DNA from: Escherichia phage ECO103 4-12-1
DNA length: 64,000 nt
Sequence record: OR844650
Direction: 5' to 3' (one strand)
Shown here: positions 41,735 to 42,145 of the stretch, piece after piece
How the letters are laid out: the number at the start of each line of letters is the position of its first letter
Numbering within the stretch: position 1 is the stretch's first letter
Translations under genes and position numbers: made by a program
Notes under the pieces: model-generated
The model's database searches: none
What the model was told of the DNA's origin: nothing
What the model saw: the letters and a program-made list of their open reading frames with translations, nothing else

Positions 41735-42145
41735 TTAATCGTAGTAAGTTCTACCTACAGTGATGTGATATTTAAAGTACTTGGTTGGTAGTCCTAGTTC
41801 ATTTCTAATATGTGTGATGAAATCATCTTCAAATTCAATGATAAAGAATGAACCTGGATTCTTTTTATCTTTTACTATCTCAATACAAGGATTGAACTTT
41901 ATCTTTACTTTCATTCCATCGTACTTTTTCCAGTACTCTGGATTTGGTGGCACTTCACCACGAACGATACTGACATGTGCTCCCCATTGTGGGTCTTTAA
42001 TATCAATATGTAAGTCAGTTCTGATGAAGTACTGGTAGTATCGAACCAACTGTAATGGAAGTTGTAGTACTAACCAGAAGTCCTTCTTCTTTTTCATAGT
42101 GCCACGTTCTGGATCATACACCAGAGTTCCTTCCATTTCAATCAT
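41735..42145 (-). CDS. 2H phosphoesterase-like protein (LigT/Acb1-like)
   Basis: Two H-x-[ST]-x motifs (HVSIV and HITVG) ~70 aa apart in a 136-aa protein. Confidence 0.5.
   Translation of the reverse strand: MIEMEGTLVYDPERGTMKKKKDFWLVLQLPLQLVRYYQYFIRTDLHIDIKDPQWGAHVSIVRGEVPPNPEYWKKYDGMKVKIKFNPCIEIVKDKKNPGSFFIIEFEDDFITHIRNELGLPTKYFKYHITVGRTYYD

Follow-up and report, generated by a model that had tools for sequence, protein, structure and literature searches.

What does a 136-amino-acid protein with two widely spaced histidine motifs do for a very large phage? The question is raised by a small gene of Escherichia phage ECO103 4-12-1 (record OR844650), from which a stretch of 64,000 nucleotides, referred to here as the window, was analyzed. 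From the letters of the sequence alone, the product had originally been predicted to be a small 2H (LigT-like) phosphoesterase that either degrades cyclic oligonucleotide immune signals, as does the phage enzyme Acb1, or processes RNA ends. Our analyses place it in a phage family of 2H proteins separate from Acb1 and suggest, at a probability that we put at about one-half, that it trims 2',3'-cyclic phosphate RNA ends in RNA or tRNA repair. The gene and its two motifs lie as follows:

41735..42145, minus strand: predicted stand-alone 2H-SAK phosphoesterase coding sequence, 136 amino acids, with an ATG start and the stop codon inside the coordinates; orthologue of gene 531 of Escherichia phage 121Q
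41966..41977, minus strand: first predicted catalytic motif, H57-V-S-I, which opens strand 57-62 and is followed by the invariant R62-G63
41756..41767, minus strand: second predicted catalytic motif, H127-I-T-V, within strand 126-132, followed by G131-R132-T133; the chain ends at D136

Invariant histidines and an internal repeat

Both motifs named in the original prediction, HVSIV (H57) and HITVG (H127), are read directly in the translation of the open reading frame (ORF), 70 residues apart. Motif pairs were defined strictly (H-hydrophobic-[ST]-hydrophobic, twice, 40-130 residues apart) or loosely (H-x-[ST]-x, twice). Among 46 non-overlapping window ORFs of 100-250 amino acids, the strict pair occurs in the 2H ORF only and the loose pair in two; 20,000 shuffles of the protein's own residues produced a loose pair in 1.1% of cases and a strict pair in 0.03%. 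The H-x-[ST]-x pairing is not a chance feature. The one other window ORF with a loose pair (53065-53574, minus strand, 169 amino acids) has HESV and HSSN motifs without hydrophobic flanks, and that pair is probably due to chance. In the whole 348-kb genome of phage 121Q, 759 stop-free segments reach 80 amino acids or more, and three of them contain a strict pair; besides the 2H ORF, these are an antisense frame and a 107-amino-acid protein without a Pfam match.

H57 and H127 are invariant in 22 homologues at 41-96% identity, in which the motifs follow the consensus H-[VIA]-[ST]-[IV]-x-R-G and H-[ILVMF]-T-[IVF]-G-R-T, and they are the sole invariant columns in a set of 55 homologues at 26-65% identity. 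T129 is conserved at 90% or more, and position 59 is serine in nearly all of the 22 closer homologues and threonine in one. This pattern bears on whether the protein is an enzyme of the expected kind at all. It could instead be no hydrolase in vivo and serve as a 2H-fold binder of RNA or nucleotides, carry a 2'-5' ligase-type activity, or act as a partner subunit of Ro-like or YqeY proteins; however, strict invariance of both histidines and a near-invariant T129 (with S or T at position 59), despite a mean column identity of 26%, make this very improbable. Invariant histidines in a family with so low a mean column identity fit purifying selection on catalysis.

Internal duplication is the defining trait of the 2H superfamily (PMC9503650), and the N-terminal and C-terminal halves of the family profile align in register, with H57 on H127 (hhalign E 1.2e-4, probability 55%). 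In the predicted model, both halves run strand-strand-helix-strand, the last strand bearing the HxS/T motif, and the second half has one extra short strand. The protein is a minimal 2H fold of two repeats of ~68 residues, each ending in an H-x-S/T motif. Its model resembles solved 2H enzymes in three dimensions, the top structural match being Acb1, which is of similar size, at scores that are modest. Foldseek searches returned nothing significant from the PDB (best, Usb1; E 0.039, TM 0.43) and only a near-identical fragment from BFVD. Because the structural scores are modest and the PDB search gave no significant match, we regard the gene product as a divergent, reduced version of the fold; we infer, rather than read from coordinates, that H57 and H127 are juxtaposed in space. 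In calling a 2H fold the original prediction was right, given the motifs, the invariance of the histidines, the internal repeat, and the similarity in three dimensions to solved members.

A large family of giant phages

Pfam gives one meaningful match, to PF22547 (2H-SAK, for the 2H phosphoesterase domain of Swiss Army Knife proteins), at 25.8 bits against a curated cut-off of 27 (E 1.4e-5), with only residues 89-136 aligned. For the family as a whole the assignment is firm: of 55 diverse homologues, 50 match PF22547 and no other family (E<=0.01, best 1.2e-9), homologues retrieved by profile pass the cut-off (e.g., P0059 at 29.8 bits), and a 96%-identical protein carries a precomputed PF22547 match. 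In UniProt, 55%-identical orthologues from Yersinia, Serratia, and Erwinia phages are named [quoted passage not shown] and every member of the protein's own 90% cluster is called "hypothetical." PHROGs places the protein in phrog_12204, where function is unassigned. No NCBIfam model matched the protein or T4 Acb1, and searches of the PDB with its sequence and profile gave only noise and no relative.

The family is thus already catalogued, in Pfam and in the UniProt names of relatives, and has been predicted in comparative work on jumbo phages. The 2H-SAK concept is that of Burroughs and Aravind (2016), as cited in PMC7824862. Iyer et al. (2021) treated "Swiss-army-knife" proteins as components of RNA repair and predicted that the 2H enzymes of jumbo phages clear 2',3'-cyclic ends for ATP-grasp RNA ligases, the substrates being 2',3'-cyclic phosphates that arise when tRNA is cleaved and when RNA is processed in an NAD-dependent way (PMC7824862). 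Like PF22547 members, the present protein has orthologues so named, has its sole Pfam match, just below the cut-off, in this family, and sits in a family-wide context of RNA repair genes; unlike them, the phage proteins stand alone and are not embedded in a multidomain SAK protein. New here are the rejection of Acb1 membership, the minimal two-repeat architecture, and the association of the gene with those for RNA ligase, Ro/TROVE-like, and YqeY proteins.

An exhaustive profile search retrieved 1,097 cluster representatives at E<=1e-3 (477 of them at E<=1e-10), giving a family size of ~1,100 clusters at 50% identity. The homologues are almost all stand-alone proteins of 130-170 amino acids, and most of their contigs are 200-600 kb long. 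In GenBank they occur in RaK2-like enterobacterial phages and in jumbo phages of Vibrio, Bacillus (phage G gp116), Agrobacterium (Atu_ph07), and Ralstonia. Narrow search patterns applied to 185,579 bacterial and archaeal species genomes gave four matches, all in metagenome-assembled genomes.

Relation to Acb1 and other 2H enzymes

Were the protein an Acb1-like nuclease of immune signals, it would cleave cyclic di- or trinucleotides of cyclic-oligonucleotide-based antiphage signaling systems (CBASS), possibly of type III CRISPR, or of other systems, and so blunt abortive infection. Neither the protein nor any of the 55 homologues matches the Acb1 family, PF23474; comparison of the family profile with T4 Acb1 (gene 57B) gives an hhalign probability of 0.5%, and BLASTP is insignificant. 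Acb1 function depends on elements that follow its second H-x-T motif, namely E141, which reads adenine, W147, and a C-terminal lid spanning residues 145-152 (PMC9117128). The lid and equivalents of E141 and W147 are missing here, with 9 residues following H127 compared with 39 following H113 of T4 Acb1. Unlike Acb1 (T4 gp57B and Erwinia phage FBB1; PF23474), with which there is no detectable sequence similarity, 2H-SAK genes have RNA repair genes as neighbors. Of the two roles first proposed, RNA-end processing is thus the one favored by gene context, and membership of Acb1 fails on the family model, the hhalign comparison, and the missing lid.

Some phages carry both kinds of gene. The IMG/VR phage at locus L050 has, at a distance of 4.4 kb from its 2H-SAK gene, a bona fide Acb1 gene (10793-11203, minus strand), which scores 72 bits with PF23474 and matches T4 Acb1 at E 3e-12, and Yersinia phage fHe-Yen9-04 encodes a 140-amino-acid 2H orthologue together with a separate 148-amino-acid protein named Acb1. 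In the phage studied here, no second 2H or Acb1 gene was found by motif scan and tblastn with T4 Acb1, and no T4-type Acb1 was detectable by tblastn in the 121Q genome or the window. Because this leaves the anti-CBASS niche formally open, we keep an Acb1-like activity in consideration as a quite unlikely function. Structural similarity to Acb1 alone does not amount to an anti-CBASS function, a caution that applies to annotation generally.

With low confidence, the jumbo-phage 2H-SAK proteins might be regarded as a distinct, phage-specific class with a core of ~2 x 68 residues, acting either as the catalytic partner of RNA-binding modules (YqeY or Ro/TROVE-like) in a mode of tRNA or RNA repair that differs from the Pnkp-Rnl1 pathway of T4 or as a degrader of a nucleotide immune signal or ADP-ribose cyclic phosphate beyond those handled by Acb1. 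Degradation of such a compound outside the range of Acb1 would explain why some phages keep both enzymes.

Other 2H groups are also distinguishable. The LigT/ThpR models PF02834 and PF13563 (LigT_PEase and 2_5_RNA_ligase2) matched neither the protein at E<=10 nor the 55 homologues at E<=0.01. Compared with E. coli LigT, Pyrococcus PH0099, and Deinococcus CPDase, the protein is ~40 residues shorter and has one helix per repeat where those have two, and the 2H-SAK family is restricted to phages, apart from the four metagenomic matches among 185,579 species genomes searched with narrow patterns. The 2',5'-phosphodiesterases of coronavirus (ns2) and rotavirus (VP3) share no sequence similarity with it; their substrate, 2-5A, is part of the vertebrate OAS-RNase L pathway. 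No literature was found that ties a 2H enzyme to Thoeris. As a separate observation, 0.6 kb downstream of the 2H-SAK gene of locus L065 lies a gene (7000-8016, plus strand) for a protein with a metallo-β-lactamase (MBL) fold. Its score with the model for the anti-Pycsar enzyme Apyc1, 34.8 bits, is below the cut-off of 50, and the protein may either degrade a signal or be a generic MBL protein.

Gene neighborhoods in relatives

Twenty-six loci were compared, comprising the window, seven metagenomic loci with precomputed Pfam matches, and 18 loci whose 291 neighboring ORFs were pooled and scanned; key neighbor genes were verified individually. An RNA ligase gene (PF09414) lies within ~6 kb of the 2H-SAK gene in 7 of the 26 (L015, L017, L019, L025, L031, L051, and L060), representing ~5 independent lineages. 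The binomial P is 0.0015-0.03 at an assumed chance rate of 4-8% per locus, a baseline that is an estimate from one or two ligase genes per 350-kb genome and a 12-14-kb span per locus rather than a matched control. In the closest RaK2-like relatives, the 2H gene is directly preceded by the gene for a DUF2828/DUF7788 protein and, before that, by an RNA ligase gene (PHA02142 OB domain plus PF09414 ligase), as seen in the Klebsiella and Serratia relatives (L025:2377-5797 and L031:2305-5513).

In Ralstonia phage RsoM2USA (L022:3442-4908, plus strand), the gene directly upstream of 2H-SAK is annotated as hypothetical and encodes a TROVE/Ro60-type protein with Pfam TROVE and Ro60 vWA matches and E 3e-20 to PDB 9l5y. 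When DUF2828/DUF7788 was compared with Ro/TROVE, the alignment was confined to the vWA MIDAS segment (hhalign E 0.003, probability 11%), and DUF2828/DUF7788 had no PDB match. YqeY domains share homology with the tail of GatB that binds tRNA. Four loci encode YqeY within 0.4-4.3 kb of the 2H-SAK gene: it lies downstream in Atu_ph07 (0.4 kb; a stand-alone gene, L055:6842-7300), L016 (1.1 kb), and Serratia phage BF (4.3 kb), and upstream in L065 (2 kb). In the metagenomic protein P0035 (335 amino acids), a YqeY domain is fused to the 2H-SAK domain. The jumbo-phage survey makes no mention of YqeY (PMC7824862).

Near other 2H-SAK members are found HAD_SAK_2 (in L019), RlaP, CCA-adding enzymes, tRNA genes, and a class I aminoacyl-tRNA synthetase; linkage to a CCA-adding enzyme is common to the phage studied here, its RaK2-like relatives, and a Vibrio jumbo phage. 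The association with RNA repair components is one of the 2H-SAK family as a whole, and nearby in this window it is represented by RlaP and the CCA-adding enzyme only. Immediate neighbors vary. The ORFs just downstream in several distant loci are mutually unrelated (DnaB-like, 5'-3' exonuclease, NadM-like, and MBL fold), and there is therefore no universal operon partner.

Two window genes belong to this theme:

37579..38691, minus strand: CCA-adding tRNA nucleotidyltransferase (Pfam PolyA_pol and PolyA_pol_RNAbd), 3 kb downstream of the 2H gene
51432..52664, minus strand: RlaP, the RNA-ligase-associated Pol-beta nucleotidyltransferase, 410 amino acids (Pfam PF10127, E 6.4e-16), 9 kb upstream; annotated only as "nucleotidyltransferase"

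Outside the window, ~50 kb away, lie the genes for T4-type Rnl1 and Pnkp, the latter combining a kinase with an HAD phosphatase.

Proposed role in RNA-end repair

Because of this gene context, RNA 2',3'-cyclic phosphate ends are the likeliest substrate. The protein is proposed to be an active, metal-independent phosphodiesterase of the 2H-SAK clade, with the minimal 2H fold. H57 and H127 would hydrolyze the five-membered cyclic phosphate by general acid-base catalysis, one activating water and the other protonating the leaving oxygen, to yield a 2'- or a 3'-phosphate. By analogy with the 2H paradigm, of which the Acb1 tetrad is an example (PMC9117128), S59/T129 and the pseudosymmetric R62/R132 may hold the phosphate, and the conserved aromatic residues Y10, W24, Y36/Y37, and W72 might stack on the base. 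The substrate would be the cyclic end that results when metal-independent host nucleases, such as anticodon nucleases and toxins, cut tRNA or other RNA, and the opened end would feed the phage RNA repair set (Pnkp, Rnl1, RlaP, and the CCA-adding enzyme), so that translation is kept running during infection.

Three considerations weigh against this proposal. T4-type Pnkp already handles cyclic ends; the tight partners of the relatives have been lost in this phage; and no assayed 2H-SAK member was found in the literature. As to the lost partners, the RaK2-type RNA ligase and the DUF2828 protein are absent from 121Q and from the window, where five small ORFs without Pfam matches hold their place, and no YqeY gene was found in either.

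If the proposal is correct, the protein is another tool by which very large phages keep their tRNAs and translation machinery working under attack by host ribonucleases, and a function would be given to a gene annotated as "hypothetical" in every Asteriusvirus record. Given that the 2H-SAK family is large and almost confined to giant phages, a single biochemical characterization would annotate many genes, and would decide between RNA repair and the destruction of immune signals as the task of those small phage 2H enzymes that do not belong to Acb1.

Possible links to ADP-ribose metabolism

A second, looser theme in the neighborhoods concerns ADP-ribose. Macro genes lie 2.7-5.5 kb from the 2H gene in four phage groups (including Bacillus phage G, Atu_ph07, and the Serratia phage BF type), and 2H-SAK loci also contain NAD/ADP-ribose genes, among them an adjacent NADAR as well as PARG, ADP-ribosylglycohydrolase, Sir2, PARP, Nudix, and NadM-like genes. 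The window has two such genes, both downstream of the 2H gene, and a glutaredoxin gene on the same strand is listed between them:

37069..37470, minus strand: Nudix hydrolase (Pfam NUDIX, E 1.1e-12), annotated as NudE-like in 121Q
35762..36238, minus strand: Macro domain protein of the Appr-1''-p processing type, so annotated in phages G17 and 121Q (weak Pfam Macro match, E 0.009), 5.5 kb downstream

These genes raise the main rival explanation, in which the substrate is ADP-ribose 1'',2''-cyclic phosphate (Appr>p) or another NAD-derived cyclic phosphate. The 2H enzyme would open Appr>p to ADP-ribose 1''-phosphate, Macro would dephosphorylate it, and Nudix would cleave the product, a chain that could clear by-products of RNA repair or destroy ADP-ribose-based toxic or signaling metabolites from host defenses. 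A route through Cpd1 and then Poa1 is known in yeast tRNA splicing. However, the Macro linkage is loose, with genes kilobases apart rather than adjacent, and Macro is present in three independent lineages of ~22, which is not clearly above chance (P 0.06-0.26); Macro genes are in any case common in jumbo phages (56%; PMC9503650). Unlike the systems built on Cpd1 or the plant Appr>p cyclic phosphodiesterase with a Poa1-type Macro phosphatase, the phage has no KptA/Tpt1 to generate the substrate: none was found in 121Q, and the E. coli host has kptA. Finally, the tightest partners in relatives, by adjacent genes and one fusion, are RNA-binding or ligase proteins and not ADP-ribose enzymes. We consider Appr>p an unlikely substrate, and retain RNA 2',3'-cyclic phosphate ends as the preferred one.

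The locus and its surroundings

The window has a G+C content of 34.6%. Over positions 40000-44000, identity is 99.9% to Escherichia phage SP27 and 96-99% to 121Q, PBECO4, phAPEC6, G17, and further jumbo phages of the Asteriusvirus (RaK2-like) group, which are ~350 kb in size. Asteriusvirus phages keep the 2H gene at 96-100% identity, and other jumbo phages have full-length homologues at as little as 25%; given this conservation, 41735..42145 is a genuine gene. In the PBECO4 and vB_EcoM_JNE01 records, some GenBank annotation gives a 67-amino-acid fragment, and tblastn shows an intact frame of 136 amino acids in those genomes; the fragment is probably a start-site or annotation artifact. The gene was also considered as a virion protein, an idea we rejected, as 121Q gene 531 is absent from the genes flagged as virion structural.

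All genes around the 2H gene are on the same strand. It is the last in a tight run of six small genes, which begins right after a terminator-like hairpin at 43735-43753, and the five upstream genes are probably cotranscribed with it. A spacer of 135 nucleotides follows the 2H gene, after which come a lysozyme gene, a ribosome-associated factor, and a terminator:

42153..43716, minus strand: five small, tightly packed genes without Pfam matches, immediately upstream of the 2H gene, with a 7-nucleotide gap to the nearest
40640-41599, minus strand: LysM-lysozyme gene, downstream of the 2H gene
40291..40623, minus strand: HPF/RaiA ribosome-associated factor (Pfam Ribosomal_S30AE, E 3.3e-10), between the LysM-lysozyme gene and the terminator
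40256-40282: terminator after the HPF/RaiA gene, from a terminator scan

The HPF/RaiA factor, which is of the ribosome hibernation type, is kept at the same position in RaK2-like relatives. Sigma-70-like promoters around the 2H gene were not above chance (16 found, 21 expected), and a promoter scan found no T4-type late promoter near it.

Two further observations concern the genome more broadly. The T4-type late-promoter core TATAAATA occurs once in the 64-kb window (60809-60816, minus strand), against an expectation of 10.96 +/- 3.25 from dinucleotide-preserving shuffles, an approximately tenfold depletion; the genome so depleted is AT-rich and encodes a gp55-like late sigma factor (121Q gene 591). 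In 121Q, positions 117089-131255 hold ~14 tandem paralogues annotated as RCC1-like "regulator of chromosome condensation," on the strand opposite to their surroundings.
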